64,000 bases of DNA from a virus. Below the pieces are notes generated by a model that saw nothing but the letters and a program-made list of their open reading frames with translations, searched no databases and was not told the origin of the DNA. A program made the translations under genes and the position numbers. The stretch spans positions 1 to 64,000 of IMG/VR virus record IMGVR_UViG_3300025617_000007; one strand, given 5' to 3'. Below are positions 1-40,539 of the stretch, in pieces (within the stretch, counting starts at the first letter, position 1; the number at the start of each line of letters is the position of its first letter).

Positions 1-127
1 ATCAAGTAAATAAGTTTGACCGACAGACGCAATTGAAAAATAATTAAATACTGGGTCCGTACTACTTAACCAAACAATTCGTGAAGGGTCATTACAACAA
101 GCAAGTATATGATACGTTTCACTTGGT
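1..127. repeat. Exact direct repeat, copy 1 (cut by the window edge); partner at 25815-25941
   Basis: Base-by-base comparison gives 127/127 identity; encodes PSETYHILACCNDPSRIVWLSSTDPVFNYFSIASVGQTYLLD in both genes. Confidence 0.97.
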
Positions 128-1217: not shown

Positions 1218-3593
1218 TTAGTTTTCTCTTCTTTCTTCAGGTTTATAATATTTAATTCTTTCGTGCCAAATAGGAGATGCCAATAAAATTGCAGGATTTA
1301 ATTCTCCCTTCTTTGTCATCTGATACATATGTGACATCCAAGTCTGTTCGTATGGGTGTCCCCACTTAGTATCAATAAACATTTTTTTATTACCTTCTTT
1401 ACTAACAATCATAGGCCAATTAGCATAGTAAATTTCACCATCAACATATGTCAATCCATCCATATTTCGAATATTTTTAAATTCAGTTAATGGAACATTC
1501 GGGTCTAATCCGCTGACAGGTAACTTATCATAATGAGGCCAATCTTTAGTCCTAATGTCTTGTGGAACATTATACCACGAACACTGTTTATCGTTATCAA
1601 AATAAACTTCAGTAAAACTTAACTTTAAGAAATCGAAACCTTCTTTTAACATTATTCTATGAGCTAAATTATAAATGTTTGGAACGTATTTTCTAAATCC
1701 ATTCCTACAAACCTCACCTTTTAATTCTGGTGGGTTAACCGTCATATCATCTTCAAAGAAGAACATAAAATCAGCATCTGATTTGTGAAAATGTTCGGCA
1801 GCTGCTTGACGACCACCACAAATACCCGTATTACCACCTAAATCAATATATTCAAAGTTATACTCCTTCGCAATTTCTTTATTTTTAACTTTAGCATTTT
1901 GGTCGGTTGAATTATCCAATAAAAACAGGTTCGGTCTTTCCAACCACTCAGGAGTTTTTTTCATTGAATTAATCGTATGTAGTACTTGTTCAGGAAAATT
2001 AAAAGTTAACATATATAAATTAGTATTAACTCTATTAACATCTCTATCAGTATACTTACGATTATTATTGATTCTTTTTACGTCTGGTTCAGTAATTTTA
2101 ACATTATTTTCTTTAAGTGCTTGCGTGAACTTAACGATTAAACCATTACCGTCCAACTCAAACCTTTTATAAAGGTCAGGTTCCAAATAAGACATAATAG
2201 TAAACAAACTCTCCTCAGTACCCATAAGTCCTTGGGACAAGGTTTGGTCTAATAATGCATAATATGTTGAGTTAGCTTCGTTTAATTGTTGTTTGTGTCC
2301 ACCAAATAACCCACCTCTACATACATACTTAACTTTTTCACCTGAAATACGGTTCATGTCACCATATTTAAAACCATGAATCTCCGTATCAGCCTCATAA
2401 GGATAACTTAAAAATAAAAATGGATTACCGTGGTCAGTTAACTTGTCTAACACATTATCATCAACTAAATGTCCTTTAGGTACTGTATTCGTAATACCCG
2501 CATCTAACCAAAAGAAATATTCAGTATCAAATGGATTCCAAATAGACGCGTCATTTAACATAAACATTTTACCTTGAACTATCGGGTTATACCATTCTAA
2601 TGATGCTTGTGGTGAACTACCTAACCAACCTACTTGATTTAACCAATTAGAATTTGTTCTTATTTCTTGAGTTCTATCCCAAAATGGAGAATATAAGTTT
2701 TTAACACCATCTAACTCCATTACTTTTACATAGGTATTTTCTCTATTCCTATGTTCCCAAACTAAACTTTCCAATTCTTTAGGTACATAGATAAATAGAT
2801 TCTGAGGTATCTGTAATAAATTTTTAAAATGTTCAATATAGTGGTCAAATGAACGTCCATTTCGGTTAATATCCCATAAACCAGTAACTATTGTCATATT
2901 ATTATTTAAATTCGACATATCATTATAAATTTTTTCATATATTTCTTTTTTTATTGCAGTTATATCTTGACCCAACTCATAAAAATAACCATACTTATCT
3001 AACTTATCGGTTGTTAATTTTTTTTCTTCATCTGTAAGATTAATATATTCTAATCGAATGAAATGTGGTTTGATTTTTTCTAAATTCATTTGTTTAAAAA
3101 TCATCCAATCATACCCCTCAGCATCACAAATAAAAACATCAATTTTATCGAGACTATGTTTTTGAATTAACGTACTTAACGATATACCATTTACATCTAT
3201 AGTTTTAGCTAAATTATCTTTAACAAAGATATCCCTTTCGTAGTCAGTCCCAAACCCATTTTTTAAAGGGAAAAGAGCACTCATTCCTTGATAACCAGGG
3301 TGTAAATCATTTTCTTTTATAACACCTCTTTCTACCGTTAACATTCTCACCGGCCCATCACTATCTGTTATTGCACTATTTTCAAATACACAATTATTTC
3401 TGTGTTTTAAATTATTTTTAAGAATATCAAATATTTCAGGTATAGGCTCTACCAAAACTTCATCCCATTTAAAGTTTTCTAAATGACCTCTTGTATCGTC
3501 AAACGAAAAACCGTCCATAGCTCCGACCTGAACTACTTGAATGTCGGTAAAGTTTTTATTTATATAATTTAGCGAGTCGGTAATTAAATCCAT
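1218..3593 (-). CDS. Three-domain glycan-modifying fusion: FkbM-family methyltransferase + HtrL/YibB(WlaTC)-like glycosyltransferase + GT-A-like domain
   Basis: N-term VVQVGAMDG..VLVEP..IDVFICDAEGYD (FkbM); middle TIVTGLWDINR..YFFWLDAG..GGLFGG..GTEESLFT (HtrL-like); C-term NLFLLDNST..GNTGICGGRQ..FFFEDD (GT-A DxD-like). Confidence 0.75.
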   Translation of the reverse strand: MDLITDSLNYINKNFTDIQVVQVGAMDGFSFDDTRGHLENFKWDEVLVEPIPEIFDILKNNLKHRNNCVFENSAITDSDGPVRMLTVERGVIKENDLHPGYQGMSALFPLKNGFGTDYERDIFVKDNLAKTIDVNGISLSTLIQKHSLDKIDVFICDAEGYDWMIFKQMNLEKIKPHFIRLEYINLTDEEKKLTTDKLDKYGYFYELGQDITAIKKEIYEKIYNDMSNLNNNMTIVTGLWDINRNGRSFDHYIEHFKNLLQIPQNLFIYVPKELESLVWEHRNRENTYVKVMELDGVKNLYSPFWDRTQEIRTNSNWLNQVGWLGSSPQASLEWYNPIVQGKMFMLNDASIWNPFDTEYFFWLDAGITNTVPKGHLVDDNVLDKLTDHGNPFLFLSYPYEADTEIHGFKYGDMNRISGEKVKYVCRGGLFGGHKQQLNEANSTYYALLDQTLSQGLMGTEESLFTIMSYLEPDLYKRFELDGNGLIVKFTQALKENNVKITEPDVKRINNNRKYTDRDVNRVNTNLYMLTFNFPEQVLHTINSMKKTPEWLERPNLFLLDNSTDQNAKVKNKEIAKEYNFEYIDLGGNTGICGGRQAAAEHFHKSDADFMFFFEDDMTVNPPELKGEVCRNGFRKYVPNIYNLAHRIMLKEGFDFLKLSFTEVYFDNDKQCSWYNVPQDIRTKDWPHYDKLPVSGLDPNVPLTEFKNIRNMDGLTYVDGEIYYANWPMIVSKEGNKKMFIDTKWGHPYEQTWMSHMYQMTKKGELNPAILLASPIWHERIKYYKPEERREN

Positions 3594-3606
3594 TTTACTT
3601 TTTATT

Positions 3607-4230
3607 TTAAAATTTATAATTGAATATTTCTATTTCTTTTTTGGAGACGTTTTTAACTATTTCAAAAGTTTCATCATTATAAAACTCTTGGTATGGTTTA
3701 CTTACATCAATATCTATTACATAATTAAATTTGTTCTTATCATGTATTCTGAGGTCTCTATTTAATTCAATTTTAAATTTACTTTCCATGAAATTCAACA
3801 TACCATCAAAATCTGAATAATCGAACCATTTATCAAATGTAAGTCCCTTTTCTTCTAATTCAACACTAGTCAAACTTTGGTAATGTCTTTTTTGATACGA
3901 TGTCTTTATGTAATTTTCAAAAGTAACATCTTCAGGATTTATATTTTTATAAGTTTCTTTAGTTTCACATATATTACTAAAATCACGTATATTAAAACAT
4001 GTTTCATGTAGTAAATAACGATAATAAGAAACTGCGTGTTCCCACGGATTTCTTATCATAATAGTTTTATAAAAATCTTGAAATTGATACTGATTCCTAT
4101 CCACATCTTTAACTGTCATATGATGGGAATAACCTTCCCAACCATTCGCTAACATCATCTCTCTAAATGATGTTCCTCCATTTTTTGGTACGTGAATATG
4201 AAAATGTTTATTTTTTTGACTAACTATCAT
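3607..4230 (-). CDS. Sulfotransferase (Sulfotransfer_2 / carbohydrate sulfotransferase-like)
   Basis: 5'-PSB motif HIHVPKNGGTS and 3'-PB motif IRNPWEHAVSYY. Confidence 0.85.
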   Translation of the reverse strand: MIVSQKNKHFHIHVPKNGGTSFREMMLANGWEGYSHHMTVKDVDRNQYQFQDFYKTIMIRNPWEHAVSYYRYLLHETCFNIRDFSNICETKETYKNINPEDVTFENYIKTSYQKRHYQSLTSVELEEKGLTFDKWFDYSDFDGMLNFMESKFKIELNRDLRIHDKNKFNYVIDIDVSKPYQEFYNDETFEIVKNVSKKEIEIFNYKF

Positions 4231-4236
4231 ATAAAA

Positions 4237-5073
4237 TTAAATTTCCCAATTACTATTATTATACGAATTATCAATAAATTTATATAATTTTTTAGTTTTT
4301 TCATCGTCTTTATTATTCTGTCTCTCAACATTACATCCTTCTAAAGAACCGTGTTCAATATATTTTTTAATTGGAAACGTATGTCTTAAATTTTCTAACC
4401 ACTCATCATAGTTATTAAAGTCTTTATCCTCCTCAAAATACGTGACCACTCTCGGTCTTTTGTTTTTTGCAAAATACGCAGACACTGTGGTATCATCGCA
4501 CCATGTACCATATTCATCAATAAAATCAAAGAAATCATCACCAAAAAAATGTCTACGATATGAAATAGTTTTATAATGTTGTAAAATATCAACAAGTGAG
4601 TTTCTTTTTAGTGAAGAGTAATAATAATCTCTAGTATCACCGAAATGATTCGATAAAAGTCCATTCTCATCTCTAGACCTCATACCATCATATCCCACAA
4701 CATAATCAGGCCATTTTTCCCTATTTTTAATGTGTTCATTAACCATTTCTTCATGATAATACATATCATCATCAACCACTATAATTATGGTATCATCATT
4801 AACTATTCTCTTTACCGTTGGTAATAGTTTTGTAATAGAACCGTAATCATCGGTTCTAAAAATTTTCAACTTTTTATCGTCTATCATTTCTAACCATTCA
4901 GGTATAATATATTCATCACCATTCTTTGAATAAAAATTTGGTATATTCAGGTGAATTTCATAATTTTCATTATAATTTTGATTTAATAAAGATTCAATAC
5001 AGTATCTCATATCAAAATTATATTTACTATTTAACCTTTCAGGTATTGTTGTAAGTGTTATTATTACTTCCAT
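4237..5073 (-). CDS. GT-A fold glycosyltransferase-like protein
   Basis: IITLTTIPERL..DYGSITKLLPT..IIIVVDDDMYY pattern typical of viral GT2-like enzymes; DxD motif present. Confidence 0.7.
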   Translation of the reverse strand: MEVIITLTTIPERLNSKYNFDMRYCIESLLNQNYNENYEIHLNIPNFYSKNGDEYIIPEWLEMIDDKKLKIFRTDDYGSITKLLPTVKRIVNDDTIIIVVDDDMYYHEEMVNEHIKNREKWPDYVVGYDGMRSRDENGLLSNHFGDTRDYYYSSLKRNSLVDILQHYKTISYRRHFFGDDFFDFIDEYGTWCDDTTVSAYFAKNKRPRVVTYFEEDKDFNNYDEWLENLRHTFPIKKYIEHGSLEGCNVERQNNKDDEKTKKLYKFIDNSYNNSNWEI

Positions 5074-5076
5074 AAC

Positions 5077-5769
5077 TTATATTTTAACAAATACTGTTTG
5101 TCTACCCCATAAAACTTTAACATATCCGTTTTCAAGTAAATAAGGTGTTAATAATTTATCTTTACCGCCAGCGTCAGTATTAAAATCTGTATCATCAACC
5201 GATACTATGTGTATATCCGATAACTTATCCTGCGCAACTTTAAAAGCTTCTAAGTGTTTTTCAGCATATTGAGGTACCCCAACGTCCCATCCGTCTAAAT
5301 AAAGTAAATCAATCTTTTTATCGAAATTACGTAAAAATTCTATACCATCCATAGGTATATTAACATGAATATTGTCAGGAAAATCAGTCTTAAGATGATG
5401 TAAATATTGATTATGTAAGGTTTCTTTACACCTTTCATCGATATCCACAGTATATACCTCAAAACCTTCTTTAGAAAAAAAATGGGTTGAATGACCATCC
5501 TGACAACAAGGAGGAGCATCTTTAGTTTCAATATTATAACAATCGTCATAATAATTAATACAACCATCGGTCACTCCCGACCTGGTTGACCCAATTTCTA
5601 CCACAACGTTACCTCCAATAATTTTTAAAAGCTCAGAAGTTTTTTTTAACCACGGAGCAGGGTAGTTCCTAAAGTAATTTTCATAAGGTTTTAAAGGACT
5701 ATGGTCCCAATAAATTGTATTATACTTAAAATCATGTGCAGATTTTAATAGTTCTATAATTTTTTCCAT
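5077..5769 (-). CDS. Class I SAM-dependent methyltransferase (Methyltransf_24-like)
   Basis: VVVEIGS (motif I), VYTVDID (motif II), IDLLYLDG and VSVDDT. Confidence 0.75.
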   Translation of the reverse strand: MEKIIELLKSAHDFKYNTIYWDHSPLKPYENYFRNYPAPWLKKTSELLKIIGGNVVVEIGSTRSGVTDGCINYYDDCYNIETKDAPPCCQDGHSTHFFSKEGFEVYTVDIDERCKETLHNQYLHHLKTDFPDNIHVNIPMDGIEFLRNFDKKIDLLYLDGWDVGVPQYAEKHLEAFKVAQDKLSDIHIVSVDDTDFNTDAGGKDKLLTPYLLENGYVKVLWGRQTVFVKI

Positions 5770-5773
5770 TTTT

Positions 5774-7057
5774 TTATAATTTAAATTCTACTCGTTCCGC
5801 CCATCCTCGTTCTTTGGTTAATCCCCAGTAAACAACTTTGGAAGGATTTTTATCTGTTAAAAACATCTCTTCATAGTGTATAGGTTCACCATGTTTTAGG
5901 AACCTTTCTAATCTATGACCTTTTATATAATTATGGTTAACTCCAATTCCTTCATCATCATCAAATGCAATTAATATGGATTCGTAGTCATCTGCAGGTA
6001 ACATATCTCTCGTCACATTAACTAAATGGTAAAATGAGTACATAAACGATTTTTCCCATTCTTCTTCAGTTTCATAATTATATGGGTTCGGAGGAAATAA
6101 ATTATCTTTAGTGTATTTTTGAAAAGATTTATTTTTAAAATGAATTCCAGCATATTTTTCATAATCTCTAACAGTTCTAACGGTCCCTAATTCGTAACCC
6201 GTTAAATCATGACCATTATCTTCAACACCAAATAGTTGTCTAATTCTTGACCTTGCAATATCATTACCTTTCCACCATAAACTCTCACCTCGCTTACTTT
6301 GGTCATCCCAAACTAACTTTCCAGCTCTTTCTTCTCTCATCGTTGCATGCCATATCACAATCCTGTGAGGATGAAACAAATCATAACCATGGGTATATGA
6401 GCGCACCGTTAAATTAATCTCTTCACCCGCAAAGAAAATATTAGGGTCATGTCTCACTTCTTTCGCCCACTTATTAGGTCCAAATGCAAAGTGACCACTT
6501 AAGAATCTAGCAGGATATGGTTTATCTAAATGTTTCCAACCTCCTTTAACAGCTGTGGGTCTGATAAATATCGTCCCAAATGGGTAGAATGTCGCAGCTT
6601 CAGATTGCCAAGGTTCCTTAACTCGGTCATTAGGGTCGTTAAATGGGTTATAATATGGTAAGTATCCTCCAATTATTGGATTATAACCTTCTTTCTTTAA
6701 ATCATAATACCATTTAATTAATGTTTCGTCCCAATTTTCAGTAAACCTATGGTGTGAATCCAACTGACAAACAAAGTCTTCGTCAGTCAATAGTTGGTCA
6801 TTTATAATACCCCTTGCATATGCCAATCCCTTAGCTTCTTCATAAGGCATATCATATATTTTAAATCTAGGGTCATCACGATACTCATCCACATTATCAA
6901 ACCCATCTTCAGGATTAAATTGTCGACATATACCAAAATGTATTCTTTCAGGATGCTTAGCGTTTTCCAACGCACTTTTTATTGTAGGTATCAATTCAGG
7001 CTCACGATAAGCCGGTAAATGAACCAAAATTGTCATATTTTTTTTACTTTTTTTCAT
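5774..7057 (-). CDS. GT60-family polypeptide N-acetylglucosaminyltransferase, paralogue 2 (true start probably 7036, MTILVHL)
   Basis: ILVHLPAYREPEL, GLAYAR, QLDSHHRFTENWD (DSH), FLSGHFAF, DPNIFFAGEEINLTVRSYTHGYDLFHP. Confidence 0.85.
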   Translation of the reverse strand: MKKSKKNMTILVHLPAYREPELIPTIKSALENAKHPERIHFGICRQFNPEDGFDNVDEYRDDPRFKIYDMPYEEAKGLAYARGIINDQLLTDEDFVCQLDSHHRFTENWDETLIKWYYDLKKEGYNPIIGGYLPYYNPFNDPNDRVKEPWQSEAATFYPFGTIFIRPTAVKGGWKHLDKPYPARFLSGHFAFGPNKWAKEVRHDPNIFFAGEEINLTVRSYTHGYDLFHPHRIVIWHATMREERAGKLVWDDQSKRGESLWWKGNDIARSRIRQLFGVEDNGHDLTGYELGTVRTVRDYEKYAGIHFKNKSFQKYTKDNLFPPNPYNYETEEEWEKSFMYSFYHLVNVTRDMLPADDYESILIAFDDDEGIGVNHNYIKGHRLERFLKHGEPIHYEEMFLTDKNPSKVVYWGLTKERGWAERVEFKL

Positions 7058-8318
7058 ATAATGTTCCTTCCAATCTGTTTACCCACCCTTCTTTTATTGA
7101 GTGAGGCCAAACAATCCATTTATATGGTCGTTTCACGGTATTGAAACTTCTCCATACTCTACAGAACTTATCAGGGTCCTGTTTCATTCTTTTAATTTCA
7201 TTTTCATCAGCATCTTGTCTAAACAACTCATTTCCGTCCTCATCTTCAAATGCCACTGCCCATACGTTATAATCATCGTGAGGGACACTATCAAAATGGA
7301 TGTCAATACAATGTTTAAACGGAGTAGTAAACGCATTTTCATATTCTTCATCACTCTCAAATACAGGACATGGTGGGTCTAATTTGTCTGCAGTGTGTTG
7401 TAGAACCGCTCTTCTACTAAACTTAATACCTGAGTATCTCTCATACTCATCAATAGTTCTTTCATCACCTAAACCCCACGGACCAAACTCTTCAGGGTCG
7501 TAAATCTCACCATCAACACCCAATAACTTTCTATTTCTAACGTGTGAATTGTCGTTATTAGTTCCCCACGTATTATGGTCGTCCCAATGTTTTTTAAGTC
7601 CTTTACGTGTGTAATAATGCCATAAGAAAATTTTATGTGGATGTAATAAATCGTAACCGTGAGTGTATGCTCTCACTGCAATTGAAATTTCTTCACCGTG
7701 AAAATAATACTTAGGGTCGTGTTGGACTTTTTCAGCAAATTCCCCTAAAGTAAATGCAAAATGAGCTGAGTAAAATCTTGCAGGTATTGGTTCTGACCTT
7801 TCTTCAAAATCATCTATCGTTGAAGGTAAGAAATGTACATTCCCGTCAGGACTAAATCTATCAAAATCCATCCTCCACGGTTTCATAATTCTACTCTCAG
7901 GGTCATTATCAGGCTCAAATGAGGGCGCGTAACTGGTTAATAGGGGTTTTTTAATTCCGTTTTTAATTAACCTTTTTAGTTCTTTTTTTAACTCATAATC
8001 CCAATTCTCAATGAATCGTGTATGTGAATCTATTTGTAACGTATAAGTTTCACCATCATATAGTTGTTGTAATAAATTTCTAGCCCAACAAGCACCTTCA
8101 CTATCTTCATAAGGAATGTTAAGAATTCTAAACCTATCATCATCTTTATATTCATCTAAATTATCCCACTCATCTTCAGAACTATGTTGCCAAGCAATTC
8201 CAATTCTAAGATTGTCAGGATTTTTACATTTATCCAACATATCTTTAATTGTCGGTATCAATTGTGGGTCTCGGTAAGATGCTATTTGTACAAAAATAGT
8301 CTCAGGTTTACGTGCCAT
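7044..8318 (-). CDS. GT60-family polypeptide N-acetylglucosaminyltransferase, paralogue 1
   Basis: IFVQIASYRDPQL, GACWAR, LQIDSHTRFIENWD, FYSAHFAF, HDPKYYFHGEEISIAVRAYTHGYDL: motifs of the Skp1-Hyp/polypeptide alpha-GlcNAc transferase family (GT60). Confidence 0.88.
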   Translation of the reverse strand: MARKPETIFVQIASYRDPQLIPTIKDMLDKCKNPDNLRIGIAWQHSSEDEWDNLDEYKDDDRFRILNIPYEDSEGACWARNLLQQLYDGETYTLQIDSHTRFIENWDYELKKELKRLIKNGIKKPLLTSYAPSFEPDNDPESRIMKPWRMDFDRFSPDGNVHFLPSTIDDFEERSEPIPARFYSAHFAFTLGEFAEKVQHDPKYYFHGEEISIAVRAYTHGYDLLHPHKIFLWHYYTRKGLKKHWDDHNTWGTNNDNSHVRNRKLLGVDGEIYDPEEFGPWGLGDERTIDEYERYSGIKFSRRAVLQHTADKLDPPCPVFESDEEYENAFTTPFKHCIDIHFDSVPHDDYNVWAVAFEDEDGNELFRQDADENEIKRMKQDPDKFCRVWRSFNTVKRPYKWIVWPHSIKEGWVNRLEGTLYEKK

Positions 8319-8400
8319 AATATATTATTTTAAATTTTATTCTTACATTAAATAATCACGAAAAATTAATGATTGTAAAGGTCTAAACATAAAAATCGAA

Positions 8401-8407
8401 TATTTAT
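8401..8407 (+). promoter_or_regulatory. TATTTAT promoter-like motif for the single plus-strand gene
   Basis: The heptamer switches strand together with gene orientation, 7 nt before the ATG at 8415. Confidence 0.65.
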
Positions 8408-8414
8408 AAGTAAG

Positions 8415-8588
8415 ATGAAATTATTAAGAACCATACAGAAATTAGTAAACGAGGCTGAAGATAATTACTATAAGGCGTCCATAAGTTCTACAAGCACTAA
8501 AGAAGTGGAAGAACTGAAAGAGAAGTTAGATGCTAGTTTACAACTTTTAGAAATATATGAAAGGATTGAAATAAAAAAAGAGGACTAA
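8415..8588 (+). CDS. Small 57-aa helical protein; the only plus-strand gene
   Basis: Translated by hand: MKLLRTIQKLVNEAEDNYYKASISSTSTKEVEELKEKLDASLQLLEIYERIEIKKED*. Fills the gap between two minus-strand operons, has its own TATTTAT and ends in a bidirectional terminator. Confidence 0.7.
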   Translation: MKLLRTIQKLVNEAEDNYYKASISSTSTKEVEELKEKLDASLQLLEIYERIEIKKED

Positions 8589-8603
8589 TAGTCCTCTTTT
8601 TTT
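8573..8603. terminator. Bidirectional intrinsic terminator
   Basis: Perfect 14-bp arms aaaaaaagaggact-aat-agtcctcttttttt between convergent genes, with a U-tract on both strands. Confidence 0.9.
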
Positions 8604-8628
8604 ATATTTAATATTTTGTAAGTATATC

Positions 8629-10965: not shown

Positions 10966-10980
10966 TTTCTTTTTTTTTTC

Positions 10981-11042
10981 TTCTTTTTAGGCTTCGGGAG
11001 GGAAATGAATCCCTCCCATTAATTATAGTCTATTGATAAATA
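10981..11042 (-). promoter_or_regulatory. 5' leader element: TATTTAT, then a hairpin (gggaggga/tccctccc, 10996-11017), then AGCCTAAAAAGAA
   Basis: Inverted repeat with no U-tract in the sense direction; the 13-mer ttctttttaggct (10981-10993) is identical to 14596-14608. Confidence 0.7.
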
Positions 11043-11083
11043 CTTTCAATATAAAATATATTAGTTTTATTTATCTATTATTA

Positions 11084-13240: not shown

Positions 13241-13289
13241 GTGTTTTTAATTTTTATTTATTTATTATCCCTATTATAAGTTAAGGCTA

Positions 13290-14573: not shown

Positions 14574-14595
14574 CTTATTATTTTTTTATTTCTTT

Positions 14596-14665
14596 TTCTT
14601 TTTAGGCTATTGAGGGAAGGGGGACTTCCCTCAAAATTTTAATTATTTTATATAATTACTAAATA
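14596..14665 (-). promoter_or_regulatory. Second copy of the 5' leader element: TATTTAG, hairpin (ttgagggaag/cttccctcaa, 14610-14634), AGCCTAAAAAGAA
   Basis: Same order and similar spacing as 10981-11042; 10-bp perfect stem. Confidence 0.7.
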
Positions 14666-14669
14666 GTAA

Positions 14670-16724: not shown

Positions 16725-16739
16725 TTTTCTGTTTTTTAA

Positions 16740-18410
16740 TTATATTATATGTTTTATTATCCTAATATCCCAGGTCCCCCCTGAAATATTGGCTTTTAAC
16801 AATGCATTTTCATCTATCAACTCCATACCCCATACGAAGTTTGTTGTGTTCCCAATATCTACCGTTGAGAAATCATTGTATCTTATGGTTGTTCTATCCC
16901 ATACTGATTGAACTGTTCCTGCTCTGTAATTTGTTCCATCATCAATAACATAGTCAAAGAACGCCCCTTTATAAGTAGTAGCATCAACAGTGTCTATTGT
17001 TGTTCCACTTACTGAGACCGTACTTGTCGTTGAGGTCCCTATATGAGTAAGTATTTCTAACCCTGTTATAAGTGTAGAAGTTCCATCGTTATTTTCTAAA
17101 GTAATTTCACCGTTTGAGTAAGTACCACCTGTTATTGTTGGTGAAAATCCTGTCGCACTAAATTCAACACCGTCATTAAGTCCTAAGGTTAAAGTCTTAT
17201 CTAATTGATTATAACTTGTACCTGTAACGTAAGTATCTTCAGTAGTTCCTGTAGTAAATCCTGTAACTACTACCGTACCTTCATCATTTCTTGTTAATGT
17301 AAGACTACCTGTTGCATTATCATAATCACCACTTACCACATAAACATCTGTGGATTCAGGACCTGAAATCGTAATATCAGTTTCAAGACCACCAGCCATT
17401 TTAAGTATTATGTCAGGACCACTAAATGTTCCTCCCGTAATAAACGGTAAAAGAGTCGTACCTGAGGTACTATCAGTTAAGTCTTTAGTTACTCCCCATT
17501 CACTATTATAGGTAAGGGCAGATATTGCAACCTCACCCGATAAACTATCATTATACGAAATAACACCGTTCGTGTTAATAACTAAGGCTTTGTTTTCTGT
17601 AGAACTTGAAATACCTTTAATGGTTACTGTACCACCTCCCGATGAACCACTTAAAACTAAATCTGTCGATGTTAATGATAACCTTTCACCTGTCCCCCCA
17701 ATAATGTCTAAATCATTACCATCTAAATTAAGAACTCTACTACCATCTAAAGTTAAATCAGTATTCGCAATATTAGTGTCAACAATACCTGACGTAAATC
17801 CTGTTACATTAAAAGTCCCACCTGTTGTATTTGTAAATGTCGCAGTTCCCGTATTATTATCATACGTACCACCTGTTACAGTAATATCTGTTCCGTAGAA
17901 TATTCTCCATCTCGCATTTGAACGAGTAACACCACTTACACCCTCAATTGAAGAATCTAACCAAGCATCAATTAACGCTGCACCACCAGGTGTTGAAGTA
18001 GTTACTGTAGTACCATAATCAGATTCGGTAATAGACTCACCGGCACCGTCCCATAGTGATTCATAATTGGTAATGGTATACTGATATGTTAAGTTTGTTT
18101 CGTGAACATAAACTAACATACCTAACCTTCTACGACCAGTAGAAATGTTATCAGAGTTTAAGTTTACAGTGTCAGGTAAAAATGCTAGGGCTCTCTTTGA
18201 ATAGTTAATTGGTATGGTATTACCCGTAAATTCAATTAGACCCGTTTCTCCTTCAGGTATAGTAAAATCTAAATCGGCAAGTGTGTACACTTCCATGTAA
18301 CCACCAATCTGTAACACACTAAAATTACTACCAAAGACCTTATCTCTAGCAACCGAACTCGATGCGTCAAGTTGTGATGATGTTAATGGATTTTTATATA
18401 TAAACGACAT
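16740..18410 (-). CDS. Virion structural/fibre protein
   Basis: RRRLGMLVYV motif, TGGTY repeats, C-term YKGAFFDYVI..RAGTV..YNDFSTVDIG domain. Confidence 0.65.
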   Translation of the reverse strand: MSFIYKNPLTSSQLDASSSVARDKVFGSNFSVLQIGGYMEVYTLADLDFTIPEGETGLIEFTGNTIPINYSKRALAFLPDTVNLNSDNISTGRRRLGMLVYVHETNLTYQYTITNYESLWDGAGESITESDYGTTVTTSTPGGAALIDAWLDSSIEGVSGVTRSNARWRIFYGTDITVTGGTYDNNTGTATFTNTTGGTFNVTGFTSGIVDTNIANTDLTLDGSRVLNLDGNDLDIIGGTGERLSLTSTDLVLSGSSGGGTVTIKGISSSTENKALVINTNGVISYNDSLSGEVAISALTYNSEWGVTKDLTDSTSGTTLLPFITGGTFSGPDIILKMAGGLETDITISGPESTDVYVVSGDYDNATGSLTLTRNDEGTVVVTGFTTGTTEDTYVTGTSYNQLDKTLTLGLNDGVEFSATGFSPTITGGTYSNGEITLENNDGTSTLITGLEILTHIGTSTTSTVSVSGTTIDTVDATTYKGAFFDYVIDDGTNYRAGTVQSVWDRTTIRYNDFSTVDIGNTTNFVWGMELIDENALLKANISGGTWDIRIIKHII

Positions 18411-18475
18411 TTACTATTTTATTTTATAAATACTTTGATATCTCTAATCAAAAGTTTTTTTTTAGTTATTTTTTT

Positions 18476-20620
18476 TTAAGCCACCGTATTACCTTTAAAG
18501 TATATGGTGTTGTTACCATTATCAAAATACAAACCTGAACCAACAGTGTTTGTAGTATATAATCTGTATGTTCCATTAGCGAATGGTCCACCAGGATTTA
18601 CAATTGTACCTAAATTATAAACACTACTCATTACTGATGTTGTTAACGTAGTAGGTCCATTACCATTTGAATAATCTATAATAGTTTGTCTATTTCCTGA
18701 ACCAGTACCACCAATAGACTCATCAGGAATTAAGAACGAGTAATACACATTTCCACTCGCAGTCCCTGCAGGAATTTCAGTAGTAAAGAAGTTATATTGA
18801 TTAATTGAATTACCCTCACTATCTGTACCACCACCTGTTTGAGGTATTGTTTGCGATATAATTGATGGAACATTTCCTGTTCCTGCACTCGCAACGAAGA
18901 AGTTAACATAATCTGTAACATCTTGTAAATCAGCAATTGCTGTACCTGTACTAAATCCAAAGAAATTAGTTTGACCTTGATTACTCATATATGTACCAAT
19001 AATTGCAGCTAATGATGATGGTTCACTGATTATATACGCTGGCGCCAATCCTGCCTCACTAGGTGTTGGTGTAGGTGTTGGTGTTGATGATGGTGTAACA
19101 CTACTTGTTGGTGTTAATGATGGCGTTGGAGTAATACTAGTACTCGGTGTAATTGATGGTGTCGGCGTTACCGAAGATGTTGGTGTTACAGTAATACTAG
19201 GTGTTACCGATGGACTTGGTGTTACACTACTTGTCGGTGTTAATGATGGTGTAACTGTCGGAGTCACCGTAACCGTTGACGTAGGTGTTGGTGTTAAAGT
19301 CGGTGTTACTGAACTTGTAGGGGTAACACTATTTGTCGGTGTAATAGAAGGTGTTACTGAACTAGTCGGGGTCACTGACGGTGTTGATGTTACTGATGGT
19401 GTAGGCGTTACACTATTTGTCGGTGTAATTGACGGAGTAGGAGTAACACTACTTGTTGGCGTGATTGAGTTTGTTGGAGTAATAGACGGAGTTGGGCTAA
19501 CACTAATAGATGGTGTAACAGATGGCGTAGGACTCACACTAATAGATGGAGTAATTGATGGTGTAGGGGTAACACTATTTGTTGGAGTAACACTATTTGT
19601 TGGCGTAATTGATGGTGTAGGAGTTACTGAACTTGTAGGGGTAACACTATTTGTCGGAGTGATTGATTGTGTAGGAGTTACTGAACTTGTAGGGGTGATT
19701 GATGGAGTTGCAGTTACTGAAGGAGTAACTGTTTGTGACGGTGTTGGCGTCACACTACTAGTTGGTGTAATTGACGATGTTGGAGTAACACTTACACTAC
19801 TAGTCGGAGTAATTGACGATGTAGGAGTTACTGAACTTGTAGGAGTAATCGATGGTGTAGGGGTGATTGATGATGTTGGAGTAATCGATGGTGTAGGGGT
19901 GATTGATGATGTTGGAGTAACACTATTTGTTGGCGTAATTGATGGTGTTGGAGTAATACTCGGAGTTGGAGTAACACTATTGGTCGGAGTAATCGAACTT
20001 GTAGGAGTTATAGACGGAGTATTAGTTACTGACGGTGTCACACTACTTGTTGGCGTAATTGATTGGGTAGGAGTTATAGATGAAGTTGGAGTGATTGATG
20101 ATGTCGGCGTTATAGTTGTTGTTGGGGTAGGACTAACACTACTTGTTGGTGTTATAGTCGGCGTATTAGTAACTGATGGTGTAACAGTACTAGTTGGTGT
20201 AGGACTAACTTCACCACTTGACGGAGTAACCGATGGTGTAGGAGTATTTGTCGGTGTAACACTAACACTAATAGACATAGAAGGGGTAACTGAAGGAGTT
20301 ACTGTTGCAGTTGGACTAACACTTATAGACGGCGTATTTGTAGGGGTAATTGAAGGTGTAGGTGTAGGTGAAACATCATTGTCAAAAACAACTACGGGTT
20401 TTGAAATTGTTTCATCACCACAACCAGGTTGTTTATTTTGAACAAATATAGTATACTCAGTACCTGAAGGTGTACCTGGAAGGTCTAACTCAACACCTGC
20501 AATGATATGGTCACGTGTTTGTTGAGACTTTATAGGTGTTGTCAATGTGGAACCCGTGTATATATTAAACGGACCAATTGCGTTTGAACTTAATGTTAAT
20601 CTAATTATTACTTGTGACAT
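18476..20620 (-). CDS. Mucin-like virion protein: small N-terminal beta domain, ~440-aa Thr/Pro/Ser stalk, C-terminal globular domain
   Basis: Hexapeptide repeats (I/V)TP(T/S)xS across most of the protein; own TATTTAT 21 nt upstream. Confidence 0.85.
19055..20375 (-). repeat. Degenerate 18-nt coding tandem repeat (mucin-like hexapeptide, roughly 70 units)
   Basis: [18 protein letters not shown] units; the DNA is degenerate, with some identical ~20-30-nt blocks. Confidence 0.9.
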
Positions 20621-20687
20621 CTACTTTATTTGTTTCTTATATAAATACAATCGAATTATAAAATACTTTTTTTTCTCTTTACTTTTT

Positions 20688-23600
20688 TTATGCTTGGCAA
20701 CTTACACATGAATTCCATGGACCACCTGAAAGTGTCACATTTGGTGTGTTATCCACATAAGACTGAACCATATAACATACTAAATTAGTTCCCTTAACAA
20801 CCTCATTATTTTGAGGTGGAGTACCTAATGCTGAAATATCACCATAATATAGAGTAACGGGACCTGTACAGTTATCGAAATCGTTAATTTCAATCATAGA
20901 CACAACACCTGTATTACACAATTCACACGATACATTTTGTTGAGTAACTGTTAATGTTGGTGTATCAGTGGTCGTAGACTTAACAATATAACACTTATTA
21001 TCTTGTGATACCTTAACATATGAGTTAATGTTTAATGGACCAATACTTGAAGACGCTACGTAATCTAATTCAACCTCCGAACATGAGCTACCATATAATA
21101 CCTCCCTAAGAACATAATTCGTAACTACAGGACATGGGTGTTCTTCAGATGATGTACACTCATCACAGTCTAAATACGCCCGATTAGGGTCACCATTCCA
21201 CGGATTACCATTATTACCTATAAATTCACCAACCATAATACCTAAATCAGGCTCAGTACCAGTTCCTGGTGCGTAGAAACTAACACATTGGTCATCGATA
21301 CCCACCTGATTTTGTAAATATAATGTAGTTCTACCCGCAACAATTAACTGATTAATTTCACTCTCCAATGTTGGGGTCACCTTCATTTTATATTGTGCAA
21401 CATCACCTGTTTCACAACACCCTGAGAAGTATATATAAACATAGTTTTGTGATGGTGTAGGTGTTAGAGTAGGTGTGTTTGATATTGTAGGGGTCGAAGT
21501 ATTTGTCGGAGTAGGTGTGTTTGATATTGTAGGGGTCGAAGTATTTGTCGGAGTAGGTGTTGCGGTTTGACTAACACTTGGAGTGTTCGAAACAGACACT
21601 GATGGTGTGTTAGTTGGTGTCACAGTTGCAGTTAAAGTTGGTGTTTGACTCAAACTATGTGTTGGCGTTATAGTAGGCGTATTTGTCGGTGTAACCGTTA
21701 CAGAAGGTGTGGGTGTTGGTGAAGTTGTTGATGAATCACACTCAATCTCTAATTCAACTTTAGTACCTAAACTAAATTGAGCACCACGTAATGGGTCTTC
21801 GTCACCATCACAGTTAGAAATAATTGTTAATTGATTAGTATTCACATCTAAACTAAAACTTTCAATTTCAGTCACCGTAGACAAAATAGTATTAATAATA
21901 TTTATCCAATCAGAATCATCAGGATAGTCAGATAGTGTTGTTCCTGTGTAAAAACTTTGTGAGGTATTTAAAATTACACCTGTAGTTCCAGTTATACCTA
22001 TATTAACATAGAAAATAGACTCAACTAAATTACAGTTTGTGTGTCCTGACGTTAAATCAAAAAACGCTTCATTTAACATCTCTTCAAAACCTCTTTTATT
22101 ACCTACAGTAGTTACAAATTCTTGTTCACAAATTGCATTTAATTCATAACACTGAACCCTACTATTGTCACAATTAATAGTGATACTTTTAGTATCATCA
22201 CACCCATTACTATCAGTTACAGTAACACTATAAGTCCCACTTACTAAATTATTTACTACGGGTCCTGACTCTCCTGAGGGTAAGTTGGCCGACCAAACAT
22301 ATGTGAATGGAGGTTCACCATCAAATATTGTAACTGTCGCAGTACCATCATCACCTAAAACACAATCAGTTTTAGTGAGTGAAAAATTAACTCCATTAGT
22401 TTGAGAAATACTAAACCCTTTAGTTACCGTACAATTGTTATTGTCAGTTACCGTTAACACATAACTACCTGAACTTAAATTACCGACAGTAATATCAGTA
22501 TCACTTAAATCTATCTGTTGATATATTGTTTGACCTATATTTTGATTTACAATAGTATAATCAAAAGGAGGTTGTAAAGATTCTGAACCCTCCACAACTA
22601 TTACTCTAACGGCTCCGTTACTTCCTCCACAGGTAGCTCCCGTTGTAGAATCAATAACATTAAATTTAGAGTTACTTATAATTTCTTTCTCTACCGTATA
22701 CACACAATTTTCATTGAGTTGTATTTCAATAGTATATAAACCTTCACTTAACCCAATAAATGTAAAGTTTTGGTCTGTAGTAGTTACTGATTGTGAAGAA
22801 CCATTATCATCAGTAATAGTATATGTTATTATACCCTGAGGTGCCTCAAGACTGACATCTATACTTCCAGTTTGCCCACAAACGGCATTGTTCACATTAA
22901 CCGAAACCACCCTAAAACCTGCAGTTGATGTGATAACGGATAACGCTGTAGTTTCACAGAAACCTGCATCTGTTACGTTAACAGAATGGGCACCGGCACA
23001 AAGACCCGTCATTAAAAAAGTATCACTATTAGTTGTCAATAACTGACCTGTATCACCTAAATATGTATAGGGTGGTGTCCCACCACTAACCACAACTTGC
23101 ATTTGACCATTACAACTAAAACAATCTGCTTGTGTTGGAATTACGGAAACAATACCTATAGGTTCACTATATGCAACATCAAAAATAGTTTCTTTACTAC
23201 AACCTTCACTATCAGTAACGATAACACCCCAAGTCCCTTGGGTTAGTCCTGTTGCAGTTAAACCTGTTTGTCCGTCAGACCAAACATACGTATAAGGACC
23301 TACACCTGTAGTTCCAGTTACCGTCGCAACTCCTTTACCAGGATTACATTGTGACTCATCAATTATACTTAACCCATAATTTAATTGACTACTTTCATTG
23401 ATTATTACGGATTCTGTTTGAGCAGTTGCACCTCCAAAATCAGTAACAAGTGCGTAGTACACACCACTAGATAAACCCCCAAAATTATACGATTGTGTAG
23501 ACGATGATATTGTTTGAATTAATACAGTATTTCGGTATAAATCAATATTGTAAGGTAATGAATTAGAAGAACCATTAACCGTTAATTGACCTGTCGTGTC

Positions 23601-26204
23601 ATCACCACAAGTCGTACCAGATACGTTATCAATGTTCGCACAAAAACAACCATCAACAATAATGTTAATGAATAGGTCTTGATTTTCACCTCCCGAACTA
23701 TCATTTAACCTAAAAATATATGTACCCGCACTTAAGTTATACCAATAAAATGGACCATTACCTGTTTGAGTCGATAAAGTACCAGGCGAAGTATTTTGTA
23801 TTGTATACGGTTTTACACCTAACGATGGAGTAATTTCGATAATACCATTACCTAAATTTTCACATACCCCTGTAACCGCAAAAGTATATTCTAAAGGCCC
23901 TTGGTCACAATCCTGTATACATGGGTCCGCAGAAACTGCAATACCCTGATAAGGGTAATTGGTATCCACACAAACTTGTAAACCAACACCTTCACCTTGG
24001 ATTACTTCCCCACAACAATCAGTAAAAGTATAGTACCCATCAGTAGTTGCCGAATAACATCCTGATGTTCCACAATTATCACAATCAGTATATGGACCCG
24101 AAATGTCTATAGGTGAAATTATCGGCTCAGAAGTACTTACATTAATTTCTGTCACAGTGTAACAATCTCCAGATATTTGATATACCTGACCGACTTTTTT
24201 ATCTTGAGGTACCAAATATAGTGTACTAACAGGTTGTTCAATATCTAATAAGAAATCATTTAATGATTCACTAACAACTTCTTCAGTAAAATTACTAACT
24301 TTAGGGTCCACACTAAATCCAAAATTCTTTAACCCTGAACCATTTTGGTATTGCGGGTTTAAATTTTGGTAGGTTGTCGTACCGGTTAATCCCGAATAAA
24401 CATTTGTATGTGTTAAAGCAGTTAACACCAAATCTTCAGGACCCATACTAACCATAGTATTACTATTGTCACCGTATTTAGTGTTAAAATCTATTTCTGA
24501 GATAGTATCACCTTCAATTGACGCAACCGAATGTTGAACAAACGGCATTCTAGTAGTTGAATTATCAATAACAGGATAAATTAAACCGTTAATTGTACCA
24601 CCACTACTTTTAACATCTTCCCATACTTTTAGATAAGACTCATAATCATGTTTAAATCTATCAGTATATTCTGAACCACCATTATCGTTATCCCATCCAT
24701 CACCTAATAATTCAAAAGGATTGGTATATAGTTGTGATTTTGTTTGTCTACCATGGTAAAGTCCCACATACCCATCAGACTCATCAGCAACTATGATAAC
24801 TATGTAATTAGTTTCTTTACCTTCAAAAATACCAGGACCTGAATTACCTGAATTATTTAAATCCTGATTTTGGTCAAATGGAACCCCGTTACTTCGAGGG
24901 TCATCAGTTGTAAATGAACCCGTAAATTGTCTACCTCTATTAATTCTTCGATACGTATCACTACTATCATTAAATTCACTATTTTTAGGGTTACAATCAG
25001 AAACACTTGAACTCTTACACCAAGTACCTATTTCACTATTAGGAACTTCATTATCAAATTCATAAATTGTCGTACCACTCACGGTTCCACCCGTCAATGA
25101 ACCTAAATAAGGGTAAGATGCCCACCACAACCAGTTTTCACCATTATACCCTGGTAGTCCAATAACTCCTTCATATAAATTACCACTTAATAAATCACCA
25201 TCGTCTACTTTTGTTTGGTACCATGAACGAATTGACTCTGAGGCACCTGACGCACTTTCTTCACTTAAAGACGTACCATCATAAAATACAAAAACTTTTT
25301 GATTTAAACTATTAGTTTCACAACTCTCAAGTTTGTCGGCAACACTTGTAATTTCTGACGAACTTGGTGTTGGTGTAGGCGTTAAACTTTGTGTTACCGA
25401 TGAAGTAGGTGTTGGTGATACACCCGCAGATGTTGAAGGTGTGATTGTTGGTGTAGTTGTTACTGAGGTAGTAGGTGTATTGGTTGGAGTAACAGTATTC
25501 GAAGGTGTCGTTGTAGGTGTAACCGTAGGAGTTGATGTAACCCACCGAGCACTAGGAGTAATTGATGGTGTCGGAGTTGGCGTTATTGTATTACTTGGTG
25601 TAATTGATGTCGTTGGAGTTACTGTTGGTGTAGGGGTTTGTGAGGGTGAGTTAATTGGAATTAACGCTCCGCAATCGATACATGCAGAATCATCACAACT
25701 CTCTCTTTGAATAATACCTACAGGTGTCGGTACTATGGTATGTGTCGCAGGTGAAGGATACGTGGAAACATTAAAGGCCAATATATTAACACAGGTATGG
25801 TTAGACGCAACTCCATCAAGTAAATAAGTTTGACCGACAGACGCAATTGAAAAATAATTAAATACTGGGTCCGTACTACTTAACCAAACAATTCGTGAAG
25901 GGTCATTACAACAAGCAAGTATATGATACGTTTCACTTGGTTCTGAAGAACATATATCGTCACTACAACCACTTGTAGCTACAGTATAACTAGAATTTTC
26001 TTGATACCCTTCACTGAAATTTGTGGCAGTACCACCTGAAGGGTCTTCACTTCCAAGAAATGTATAACACCCGTCAGGTAACCCCAATATATTTTCAAGT
26101 AAATATGTTGAATTTAATGTAGGCGTTATCCCAAAAGCATTAAACCATGAACTTATGGCGGTTACGTAATATAAACCTGTGTCACAGGACTGGAAGTAAT
26201 ACAT
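20688..26204 (-). CDS. 1838-aa multidomain adhesin: Cys modules, TP linker, vWA-like domain, SprB repeats, TP linker, Cys modules
   Basis: KVFVFYDGTS..YIVIIVADES (vWA-like, about 24300-25300); repeats such as GVATVTGTTGVGPYTYVWSDGQTGLTATGLTQGTWGVIVTDSEGC and GTATVTIFDGEPPFTYVWS..VSGTYSVTVTDSNGC (SprB, about 22170-23890). Confidence 0.8.
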   Translation of the reverse strand: MYYFQSCDTGLYYVTAISSWFNAFGITPTLNSTYLLENILGLPDGCYTFLGSEDPSGGTATNFSEGYQENSSYTVATSGCSDDICSSEPSETYHILACCNDPSRIVWLSSTDPVFNYFSIASVGQTYLLDGVASNHTCVNILAFNVSTYPSPATHTIVPTPVGIIQRESCDDSACIDCGALIPINSPSQTPTPTVTPTTSITPSNTITPTPTPSITPSARWVTSTPTVTPTTTPSNTVTPTNTPTTSVTTTPTITPSTSAGVSPTPTSSVTQSLTPTPTPSSSEITSVADKLESCETNSLNQKVFVFYDGTSLSEESASGASESIRSWYQTKVDDGDLLSGNLYEGVIGLPGYNGENWLWWASYPYLGSLTGGTVSGTTIYEFDNEVPNSEIGTWCKSSSVSDCNPKNSEFNDSSDTYRRINRGRQFTGSFTTDDPRSNGVPFDQNQDLNNSGNSGPGIFEGKETNYIVIIVADESDGYVGLYHGRQTKSQLYTNPFELLGDGWDNDNGGSEYTDRFKHDYESYLKVWEDVKSSGGTINGLIYPVIDNSTTRMPFVQHSVASIEGDTISEIDFNTKYGDNSNTMVSMGPEDLVLTALTHTNVYSGLTGTTTYQNLNPQYQNGSGLKNFGFSVDPKVSNFTEEVVSESLNDFLLDIEQPVSTLYLVPQDKKVGQVYQISGDCYTVTEINVSTSEPIISPIDISGPYTDCDNCGTSGCYSATTDGYYTFTDCCGEVIQGEGVGLQVCVDTNYPYQGIAVSADPCIQDCDQGPLEYTFAVTGVCENLGNGIIEITPSLGVKPYTIQNTSPGTLSTQTGNGPFYWYNLSAGTYIFRLNDSSGGENQDLFINIIVDGCFCANIDNVSGTTCGDDTTGQLTVNGSSNSLPYNIDLYRNTVLIQTISSSTQSYNFGGLSSGVYYALVTDFGGATAQTESVIINESSQLNYGLSIIDESQCNPGKGVATVTGTTGVGPYTYVWSDGQTGLTATGLTQGTWGVIVTDSEGCSKETIFDVAYSEPIGIVSVIPTQADCFSCNGQMQVVVSGGTPPYTYLGDTGQLLTTNSDTFLMTGLCAGAHSVNVTDAGFCETTALSVITSTAGFRVVSVNVNNAVCGQTGSIDVSLEAPQGIITYTITDDNGSSQSVTTTDQNFTFIGLSEGLYTIEIQLNENCVYTVEKEIISNSKFNVIDSTTGATCGGSNGAVRVIVVEGSESLQPPFDYTIVNQNIGQTIYQQIDLSDTDITVGNLSSGSYVLTVTDNNNCTVTKGFSISQTNGVNFSLTKTDCVLGDDGTATVTIFDGEPPFTYVWSANLPSGESGPVVNNLVSGTYSVTVTDSNGCDDTKSITINCDNSRVQCYELNAICEQEFVTTVGNKRGFEEMLNEAFFDLTSGHTNCNLVESIFYVNIGITGTTGVILNTSQSFYTGTTLSDYPDDSDWINIINTILSTVTEIESFSLDVNTNQLTIISNCDGDEDPLRGAQFSLGTKVELEIECDSSTTSPTPTPSVTVTPTNTPTITPTHSLSQTPTLTATVTPTNTPSVSVSNTPSVSQTATPTPTNTSTPTISNTPTPTNTSTPTISNTPTLTPTPSQNYVYIYFSGCCETGDVAQYKMKVTPTLESEINQLIVAGRTTLYLQNQVGIDDQCVSFYAPGTGTEPDLGIMVGEFIGNNGNPWNGDPNRAYLDCDECTSSEEHPCPVVTNYVLREVLYGSSCSEVELDYVASSSIGPLNINSYVKVSQDNKCYIVKSTTTDTPTLTVTQQNVSCELCNTGVVSMIEINDFDNCTGPVTLYYGDISALGTPPQNNEVVKGTNLVCYMVQSYVDNTPNVTLSGGPWNSCVSCQA
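21467..21560. repeat. Perfect 42-bp tandem repeat, 2.2 copies, in the TP linker
   Basis: gagtaggtgtgtttgatattgtaggggtcgaagtatttgtcg at 21467-21508 and 21509-21550, plus 10 nt. Confidence 0.95.
25815..25941. repeat. Exact direct repeat, copy 2; partner at 1-127
   Basis: 127/127 identity with the start of the window. Confidence 0.97.
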
Positions 26205-40533: not shown

Positions 40534-40539
40534 ATACTA

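Follow-up and report, generated by a model that had tools for sequence, protein, structure and literature searches.

Tandem GT60 glycosyltransferases in a six-gene operon of a large T4-like phage: a candidate pathway for O-glycosylation of Thr/Pro-rich stalk proteins

What does a large phage glycosylate when it possesses a whole operon of enzymes for transferring and decorating sugars? The question is raised by the virus record IMGVR_UViG_3300025617_000007 of IMG/VR, which is 138.6 kb long and estimated to be 46% complete, and of which the first 64 kb (64,000 nucleotides, hereafter the window) were analysed. Between positions 1218 and 8318 of the window six minus-strand genes follow each other, neighbours overlapping or lying at most 14 nt apart, and two of them encode tandem paralogues of the glycosyltransferase family GT60. 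We consider it reasonably probable that this operon encodes a cytoplasmic O-glycosylation pathway of the phage, acting on threonine- and proline-rich stalks as putative acceptors; in other words, the phage probably sugar-coats its own appendages. This mechanism had been proposed in an earlier note made from the letters of the sequence, and we hold it, with better than even confidence, to be the best available reading. Its support comes from the fold of the GT60 enzyme, from its family, from cross-genome co-occurrence and from the staining of virions of the phage XacN1, and not from gene position.

The two GT60 copies are 40% identical to each other, and both match the family profile PF11397, with which the earlier note had suggested checking them, far above its curated cut-off of 21 bits (Table 1); a search of the whole record recovers the family too. 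The motifs reported for them, DSH (residues 97-99) and F-x-GEE (206-210; FHGEE in GT60-A), were confirmed, being invariant in an alignment of 16 sequences, and the metal motif of GT60-A is of the DxH type (D97-S98-H99) rather than DxD. A sequence search of PDB with both proteins and with a profile of the 16 sequences gave nothing relevant. An AF2 (AlphaFold) model of GT60-A, with a predicted local distance difference test score (pLDDT) of 81.8, was therefore compared by fold against the same database. The top 29 entries were all mucin-type polypeptide N-acetylgalactosaminyltransferases (ppGalNAc-Ts), with Z of 19-21.7 over 265-318 aligned residues (about 280), while the best other GT-A enzymes, SpsA (Z 16.5) and TarP (Z 15.4), stood about 5 Z units below; no solved N-acetylglucosamine (GlcNAc) transferase of Skp1 (Gnt1) was among the fold matches listed. 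The modelled GT60 enzyme is thus distinctly closer to the transferases that initiate mucin-type O-glycans in animals than to the remaining GT-A enzymes.

These best structural matches belong to GT27 (e.g. human GalNAc-T2, PDB 2FFU and 4D0T). DxH is found in both GT27 and phage GT60, and in our reading the GEE-type motif falls at the position of the Gal/GalNAc-T motif. However, the phage enzymes are only 11-15% identical to GT27, lack its ricin-like lectin domain and fall in another Pfam family; they are not members of GT27. Characterised GT60 enzymes are polypeptide alpha-GlcNAc-transferases that act on Ser/Thr-rich mucin domains, and they are related to GT27 and have no ricin-like domain (PMC8724618). 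With the protist members (Dictyostelium, Trypanosoma cruzi, Skp1 Gnt1) the phage enzymes have in common PF11397, a DxH-type GT-A domain and the absence of a ricin-type lectin domain; they differ from them in being soluble, without a Golgi membrane anchor, in their C-terminus and in having no accompanying prolyl hydroxylase. A route through hydroxyproline acceptors found no support, no match to the P4H-type oxygenase family PF13640 above its cut-off being present in five genomes. Concerning the C-terminus, about 100 residues of GT60-A are conserved in the phage enzymes, and a 105-aa model of them (pLDDT 92.8) is an FN3/Ig-like beta-sandwich with a best Z of 7.5 to FN3 domains, for which Foldseek gave no match at E <=0.001. 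A lectin-like role for this domain was considered and is unsupported, since the generic FN3/Ig-like fold alone was recovered.

Table 1. Positions of the operon, of the tract proteins and of the other features discussed in the text (positions refer to the window, except for the two bacterial loci)
Feature	Position	Strand	Description
GT60-A	7044-8318	-	424 aa; PF11397 ('GlcNAc') E 2.2e-72, 244.9 bits; GT-A domain and C-terminal beta-sandwich; proposed initiating polypeptide O-glycosyltransferase
GT60-B, tandem paralogue	5774-7057	-	427 aa; PF11397 E 1.1e-47, 163.7 bits; DSH and FAGEE kept
Probable class-I S-adenosylmethionine methyltransferase	5077-5769	-	230 aa; Methyltransf_24-like; sub-cut-off Pfam and protein atlas
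Small GT-A glycosyltransferase	4237-5073	-	278 aa; Glycos_transf_2 22.7 bits against a cut-off of 23.3; VVDDD motif
Probable Sulfotransfer_2-type sulfotransferase	3607-4230	-	207 aa; motifs and protein atlas
FkbM-HtrL/YibB-GT2 fusion	1218-3593	-	791 aa; FkbM 22-191, HtrL_YibB 233-476, GT2-like 528-625; Pfam and NCBIfam
Gap bounding the operon upstream	8319-8628		310 nt; GC-rich hairpin with T-runs at about 8573-8603, after the upstream gene
Thr/Pro stalk protein, proposed main acceptor	18476-20620	-	714 aa; N-terminal part of about 80 aa, Thr/Pro/Ser stalk of about 440 aa, Gly/Asn-rich C-terminal part of about 190 aa
Cys-rich SprB-repeat protein, proposed second acceptor, adhesin-like appendage	20688-26204	-	1838 aa; SprB E 2.9e-14
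Truncated Cys-rich ORF, not counted as acceptor	1-1152	-	runs off the contig; PSPTPSPTP linker of about 9 residues
Tract-bearing VgrG	L233 12288-15152		Ralstonia sp. 25C
Tract-bearing VgrG	L252 15093-17582		Paraburkholderia ferrariae

The candidate acceptors are large proteins with long Thr/Pro/Ser tracts. Such tracts had been noticed in three open reading frames (ORFs) of the window; those of ORF 18476-20620 and ORF 20688-26204 were confirmed, while the third, in ORF 1-1152, turned out to be a trivial linker, too short for this ORF to be counted as an acceptor. In ORF 18476-20620 the stalk spans residues 83-521 approximately (DNA 19061-20368), and the whole protein is 58% Thr, Pro and Ser. 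The DNA of this tract consists of degenerate repeats of 18, 36 and 54 nt which match each other at 63-95%, mostly 63-88%; the tract is therefore old, and its conservation is at the level of the protein. ORF 20688-26204 contains two Thr/Pro tracts of about 100 aa each (about 25356-25649 and 21405-21740), and a further protein of 1515 aa, 46% of it Thr, Pro and Ser, is encoded at 80220-84767 of the same record. Judged from its gene content, the source is a large, uncultured, T4-like phage: in the window (GC about 33%, with all large ORFs on the minus strand) two genes of the baseplate wedge, gp6-like and gp25-like, lie at 38695-41001, and there are genes for ribonucleotide reductase, DnaB and UvsX-like and gp32-like proteins; a Gp23-type major capsid gene lies at about 112.6-114.1 kb of the record.

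We then counted long tracts in whole records with and without GT60. Tracts were found in 18 of 23 GT60-positive records (12 of the 14 complete ones; XacN1 and Xoo-sp13 included) and in none of 13 GT60-negative large phages, with a naive Fisher p of about 6e-6 to 7e-6 that ignores shared ancestry and habitat. The negatives were three of the six records matching the baseplate wedge protein of the window, plus ten sampled along a ranking by capsid similarity; loci related by their major capsid protein, mostly short fragments, were left out of these presence/absence counts. XacN1, Xoo-sp13 and RAS14 were positive controls in the whole-genome searches for tracts, RAS14 being a further GT60-positive phage with five tract ORFs, and the whole-record searches showed that GT60-bearing phage records hold several tract ORFs each. 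The co-occurrence of GT60 with tract genes, proposed earlier as a check on the mechanism, is thus seen at the level of genomes; it is not seen as proximity, and it has exceptions, as discussed below.

In bacterial genomes GT60 and tract proteins are neighbours. A tract ORF lies within 10 kb at 23 of the 80 bacterial GT60 loci examined, and tracts occur in 9 of 184 ORFs at most 1.5 kb from GT60 (4.9%) against 4 of 409 (1.0%) at more than 3 kb (p 0.005), ORF calls being crude in this GC-rich DNA. VgrG spikes of type VI secretion systems (T6SS), recognised by their Phage_GPD, gp5 C-terminal and OB domains, carry long Pro/Thr tracts 1-4 kb from GT60 genes of Ralstonia and Paraburkholderia (Table 1), which suggests that these are glycosylated T6SS spikes. 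In a Sphingomonas genome a tract protein of 1200 aa ends right at the start of GT60.

Staining data are available for one cultured relative. In virions of XacN1 at least two glycoprotein bands were revealed by Schiff staining, for which the glycosyltransferases ORF328 and ORF334 were proposed as the cause (Yoshikawa et al. 2018, PMC5852040). We found that ORF334 is a GT60 homologue (46% identity over 97% of the protein). The GT60 cassette of XacN1, formed by ORFs 330-334, adjoins baseplate wedge genes and the gene of a 3313-aa protein with a Pro/Thr tract, the genome holds at least 10 tract ORFs, and a carbamoyltransferase takes the place of the sulfo- and methyltransferases of the window phage. 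Neither the tracts nor the link of GT60 with mucin-type glycosylation were recognised by the authors of that study, and a literature search retrieved no paper on GT60 or PF11397 in phages.

The remaining genes of the operon, as the earlier note had listed them (a methyltransferase, a GT-A enzyme, a sulfotransferase and an FkbM-HtrL-GT fusion beside the two GT60 paralogues), were borne out by Pfam, by a protein atlas and by motifs. The Pfam matches of the probable methyltransferase are weak and below cut-off (Spermine_synth 0.004, Methyltransf_24 0.013); in the atlas it is placed in Methyltransf_24 with a score of 0.96-0.97, and for 21 of the 30 clusters nearest to it the set of families is that of a cluster with 37% Methyltransf_24 members. 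The probable sulfotransferase has no Pfam match, even at E 10, and no NCBIfam match. Its sequence reads PKNGGTS at the 5'-phosphosulfate motif and RNPWEHAVS(YY) at the 3'-phosphate motif for 3'-phosphoadenosine 5'-phosphosulfate (PAPS), and the atlas assigns it to Sulfotransfer_2 (PF03567) with a score of 0.96, 25 of 30 matches falling in PF03567, a structural template modelling (TM) score of 0.75 and viral Sulfotransfer_2 clusters as neighbours. The small GT-A enzyme has homologues at 12 related loci (cluster 16).

The surroundings of GT60 in other genomes indicate which part of the operon is constant. Among 8,000 candidates scored, 6,869 metagenomic proteins belong to the family at E <=1e-5; there are at least 598 matches to the GT60 pattern in viral contigs and 199 loci in bacterial genomes of several phyla, while XacN1, Xoo-sp13, CM1 and RAS14 are the only cultured phages that carry it. 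Phages of the Gp23 type are among the viral carriers, as is at least one lineage in which Gp23 had no match. Tandem GT60 pairs are found at four other viral loci (L007, L009, L011, L025), and longer forms, possibly fusions, occur at L064 (896 aa) and at L071 and L072 (500 aa). A two-domain partner made of HtrL and a GT2-like domain is present at 71 of 81 viral GT60 loci, as a single protein at 68 of them, and directly adjoins GT60 at 36. Around this pair the gene content varies between loci; it includes, among others, methyltransferases and GT-A enzymes, and in XacN1 the carbamoyltransferase. A constant GT60 and two-domain partner amid hypervariable genes is the pattern expected of a fixed core and a variable outer glycan.

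On these grounds we infer the acceptor, the sugar and the order of the steps as follows, and likewise the presence of the tract proteins in the virion and the benefit to the phage. One or both of the soluble GT60 enzymes would put the first sugar, by family analogy an alpha-GlcNAc, from a UDP-sugar on Thr or Ser in the stalks of ORF 18476-20620, of ORF 20688-26204 and of the 1515-aa protein. The HtrL and GT2-like partner, here fused to an FkbM methyltransferase, would then extend the core, and the small GT-A enzyme, the Methyltransf_24 enzyme and the sulfotransferase would add a variable outer decoration. Possible benefits are stiffening of the stalk, protease resistance and altered adsorption; the stiff, anionic coat pictured in the earlier note may serve in host recognition.

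It had been supposed that sugar donors could come from elsewhere in the genome, and genes for this were indeed found outside the window. A second glycan cluster lies at about 89.4-100.6 kb of the record (L088, L089), beside the 1515-aa Thr/Pro-rich protein, and encodes a GT-B-like enzyme, a GT2-GT2-pyruvyltransferase fusion, a Sulfotransfer_2 protein (E 6.4e-10), the GDP-mannose 4,6-dehydratase Gmd (E 6.9e-118) and an epimerase/reductase, the last two of which mean that sugar-nucleotide synthesis is encoded in the genome. Genes for PhoH, a dUTPase and an exonuclease are interspersed in this cluster. Adenosine 5'-phosphosulfate (APS) kinase, a step of PAPS synthesis, was not found in the available 138 kb of the record; a related T4-like GT60 phage (G002, 324 kb, 97% complete) has a predicted one at 257371-257688 (E 9e-21), which fits phage-driven sulfation.

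Glycosylation of virions by phage-encoded enzymes is already known, and what would be new here is a GT60 initiator together with Thr/Pro stalks and variable decoration. The chlorovirus PBCV-1, a eukaryotic virus with an atypical N-linkage and with enzyme families unrelated to those of the phage, resembles the window phage in encoding its own soluble glycosylation machinery. The glycosylation of its capsid protein Vp54 is virus-encoded, soluble and takes place outside the endoplasmic reticulum and Golgi (as cited in PMC5852040). In mycobacteriophages, according to a summary of Freeman et al. 2023 (Cell Host Microbe), phage-encoded glycosyltransferases likewise act on the phage's own structural proteins, where the glycans are attached to capsid and tail-tube subunits at their C-termini (PMC12619734); for the window phage we propose a GT60 initiator, acceptors in Thr/Pro stalks and a decoration with methyl or sulfate groups.

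Several observations weigh against glycosylation of the stalks. The earlier note had argued from tract genes lying beside the operon, and this argument did not hold: in the window 10 kb and five further ORFs separate the tract genes from the operon, only 23 of 81 viral loci have a tract ORF at most 10 kb from GT60, and in 15 related GT60-bearing records 4 of 49 tract ORFs fall within this distance against 5.7 expected by chance. Tract ORFs being no nearer to GT60 than chance across these whole records, gene adjacency was dropped as evidence. No tract was detectable in G010, a complete genome with GT60, and that of G012 is borderline, so that GT60 does not depend on long tracts. The co-occurrence statistics take no account of phylogeny or habitat, and cultured phages of enteric, cyanobacterial and soil origin make up most of the negatives. 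The tract proteins would belong to the virion on the grounds of their SprB repeats and of a same-strand block shared with the baseplate wedge genes, and the sulfotransferase and the methyltransferase are probable assignments, made from motifs and language-model similarity below curated thresholds. Finally, for a promoter the operon has only a near match, TATTTAAT, to the motif TATTTATA that precedes many genes.

Some of these points would be explained if the cassette glycosylated other proteins, either the ends of capsid and tail-tube subunits as in mycobacteriophages or other virion or host proteins, the tracts being plain flexible linkers common in the same lineages. The lack of proximity enrichment and the tract-free G010 agree with this, as do the position of the mycobacteriophage glycans in the summary cited above (PMC12619734) and the fact that the XacN1 bands are not assigned to proteins (PMC5852040). 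Against it stand the absence of tracts in all 13 GT60-negative large phages examined and the enrichment of bacterial GT60 immediately beside tract proteins, and the characterised GT60 and GT27 enzymes favour Thr/Ser/Pro-rich sequence (PMC8724618). We regard this explanation as unlikely, although it is the likeliest of the three alternatives.

It is also distinctly unlikely, in our opinion, that the cassette serves to make or remodel a glycan of the host surface (lipopolysaccharide (LPS), O-antigen or capsule) in infection, for example to block superinfection, a role already suggested for clusters of glycosyltransferase genes in cyanophages and jumbo phages. The clusters of jumbo phages have been interpreted as making diversified outer polysaccharides (PMC7824862), HtrL/YibB takes its name from a gene of the LPS-core region of E. 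coli, and FkbM, pyruvyl-, sulfo- and carbamoyl-transferases are typical decorators of polysaccharides. However, the cassette contains no membrane protein, priming transferase, flippase, polymerase or exporter. Its six products are all predicted to be soluble, none having a hydrophobic segment (best 19-residue Kyte-Doolittle mean <=0.89), and a scan that covered the ORFs at 1-30081 and ten ORFs of the cluster at 89-101 kb found no Pfam family of flippases, polymerases, priming transferases or ABC exporters. The lead enzyme comes from a protein-modifying family and is closest to polypeptide transferases, and a host glycan would leave the link with the Thr/Pro tracts unexplained.

Glycans on DNA are not known to be O-methylated or sulfated, which counts against a third explanation, namely that the enzymes hypermodify the phage DNA by placing glycans on hydroxymethylated pyrimidines as a defence against host nucleases. 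This is very improbable: some phage glycosyltransferases of the GT-A and GT-B types are able to assemble di- and trisaccharides on DNA bases (bioRxiv 10.1101/2023.12.21.572611; PMC13326640) and in XacN1 only a few kb separate GT60 from the genes of DNA polymerase and RNase H, but the known DNA-modifying GT-A enzymes are JGT/TarP-like and stand beside ThyS-like or C5-MT/5mYOX genes, whereas the neighbours in the window are large fibre-like genes, TarP reaches only Z 15.4 against 21.7 for ppGalNAc-T, PF00303 (the thymidylate-synthase family) is absent from the record and from the complete GT60-bearing genomes G001 and G005, and the window contains no gene for forming hydroxymethyl-pyrimidines (ThyS-like, or C5-MT with 5mYOX; TET/JBP-type oxygenases were not searched for).

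Returning to glycosylation of the stalks, a broader hypothesis can be put forward tentatively, with rather less confidence than for the operon itself. A GT60 initiator, an HtrL-GT2 extender and fast-changing methyl-, sulfo-, pyruvyl- and carbamoyl-transferases may form a widespread prokaryotic and viral mucin-type pathway that coats the Thr/Pro stalks of contractile-machine appendages (phage fibres, baseplate proteins and the VgrG spikes of T6SS), and it may be evolutionarily linked to the eukaryotic GT60 and GT27 initiators. Phage particles are usually regarded as bare protein. If large phages of water and soil do cover their long Thr/Pro stalks with variable, methylated or sulfated O-glycans of their own making, a glycan layer ignored by sequence-based predictions of receptor binding could set host range, adsorption, stickiness towards particles and mucus, and protease resistance; mucin-type initiation would extend from eukaryotes to bacterial viruses and bacterial injection machines; and glyco-engineering might gain polypeptide glycosyltransferases that are soluble and work in the cytoplasm. 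Since GT60-bearing phages are available in culture (XacN1, Xoo-sp13, RAS14, CM1), a direct test is possible.

Some minor observations concern the non-coding parts of the window and its edges. The motif TATTTAT(A/G/C), oriented with the gene, is found throughout the record about 10-40 nt upstream of many starts (e.g. 18476-20620, where it reads TATTTATA, 16740-18410, 33745-38622, 40540-41001 and 44163-45545), and it is probably a promoter of the phage, a variant of the T4 late promoter TATAAATA. The T4-type late promoter TATAAATA itself was not enriched, and its copy at 8401 is part of the TATTTATA that precedes a small ORF on the plus strand, in the gap upstream of the operon. This ORF (8415-8588, 57 aa), the sole plus-strand gene candidate nearby, has TATTTATA 6 nt before its ATG, and its end is overlapped by the hairpin with T-runs listed in Table 1.

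At the other edge, the N-terminus of ORF 1-1152 (688-1152) gives a weak HINT/intein-like match (Intein_splicing, E 0.0057), which is below cut-off. The contig begins with 127 nt (1-127) that are identical to 25815-25941, a segment encoding the SETYHILACCNDPSRIVWLSS... module of ORF 20688-26204. As 127 nt is a common maximum k-mer of assemblers, the contig start is probably an assembly junction at k=127, in a repeat or a variant.

In another jumbo-phage lineage, represented by a viral record without a Gp23 match (IMGVR_UViG_3300044638_006750, 233 kb; locus L021, 14756-19102), the GT60 cassette is followed by a conserved block, which comprises a subtilase, a trypsin-like protease, an HNH endonuclease, the actin-like 'Volactin' (E 1.9e-63) and a RuvB-like ATPase.

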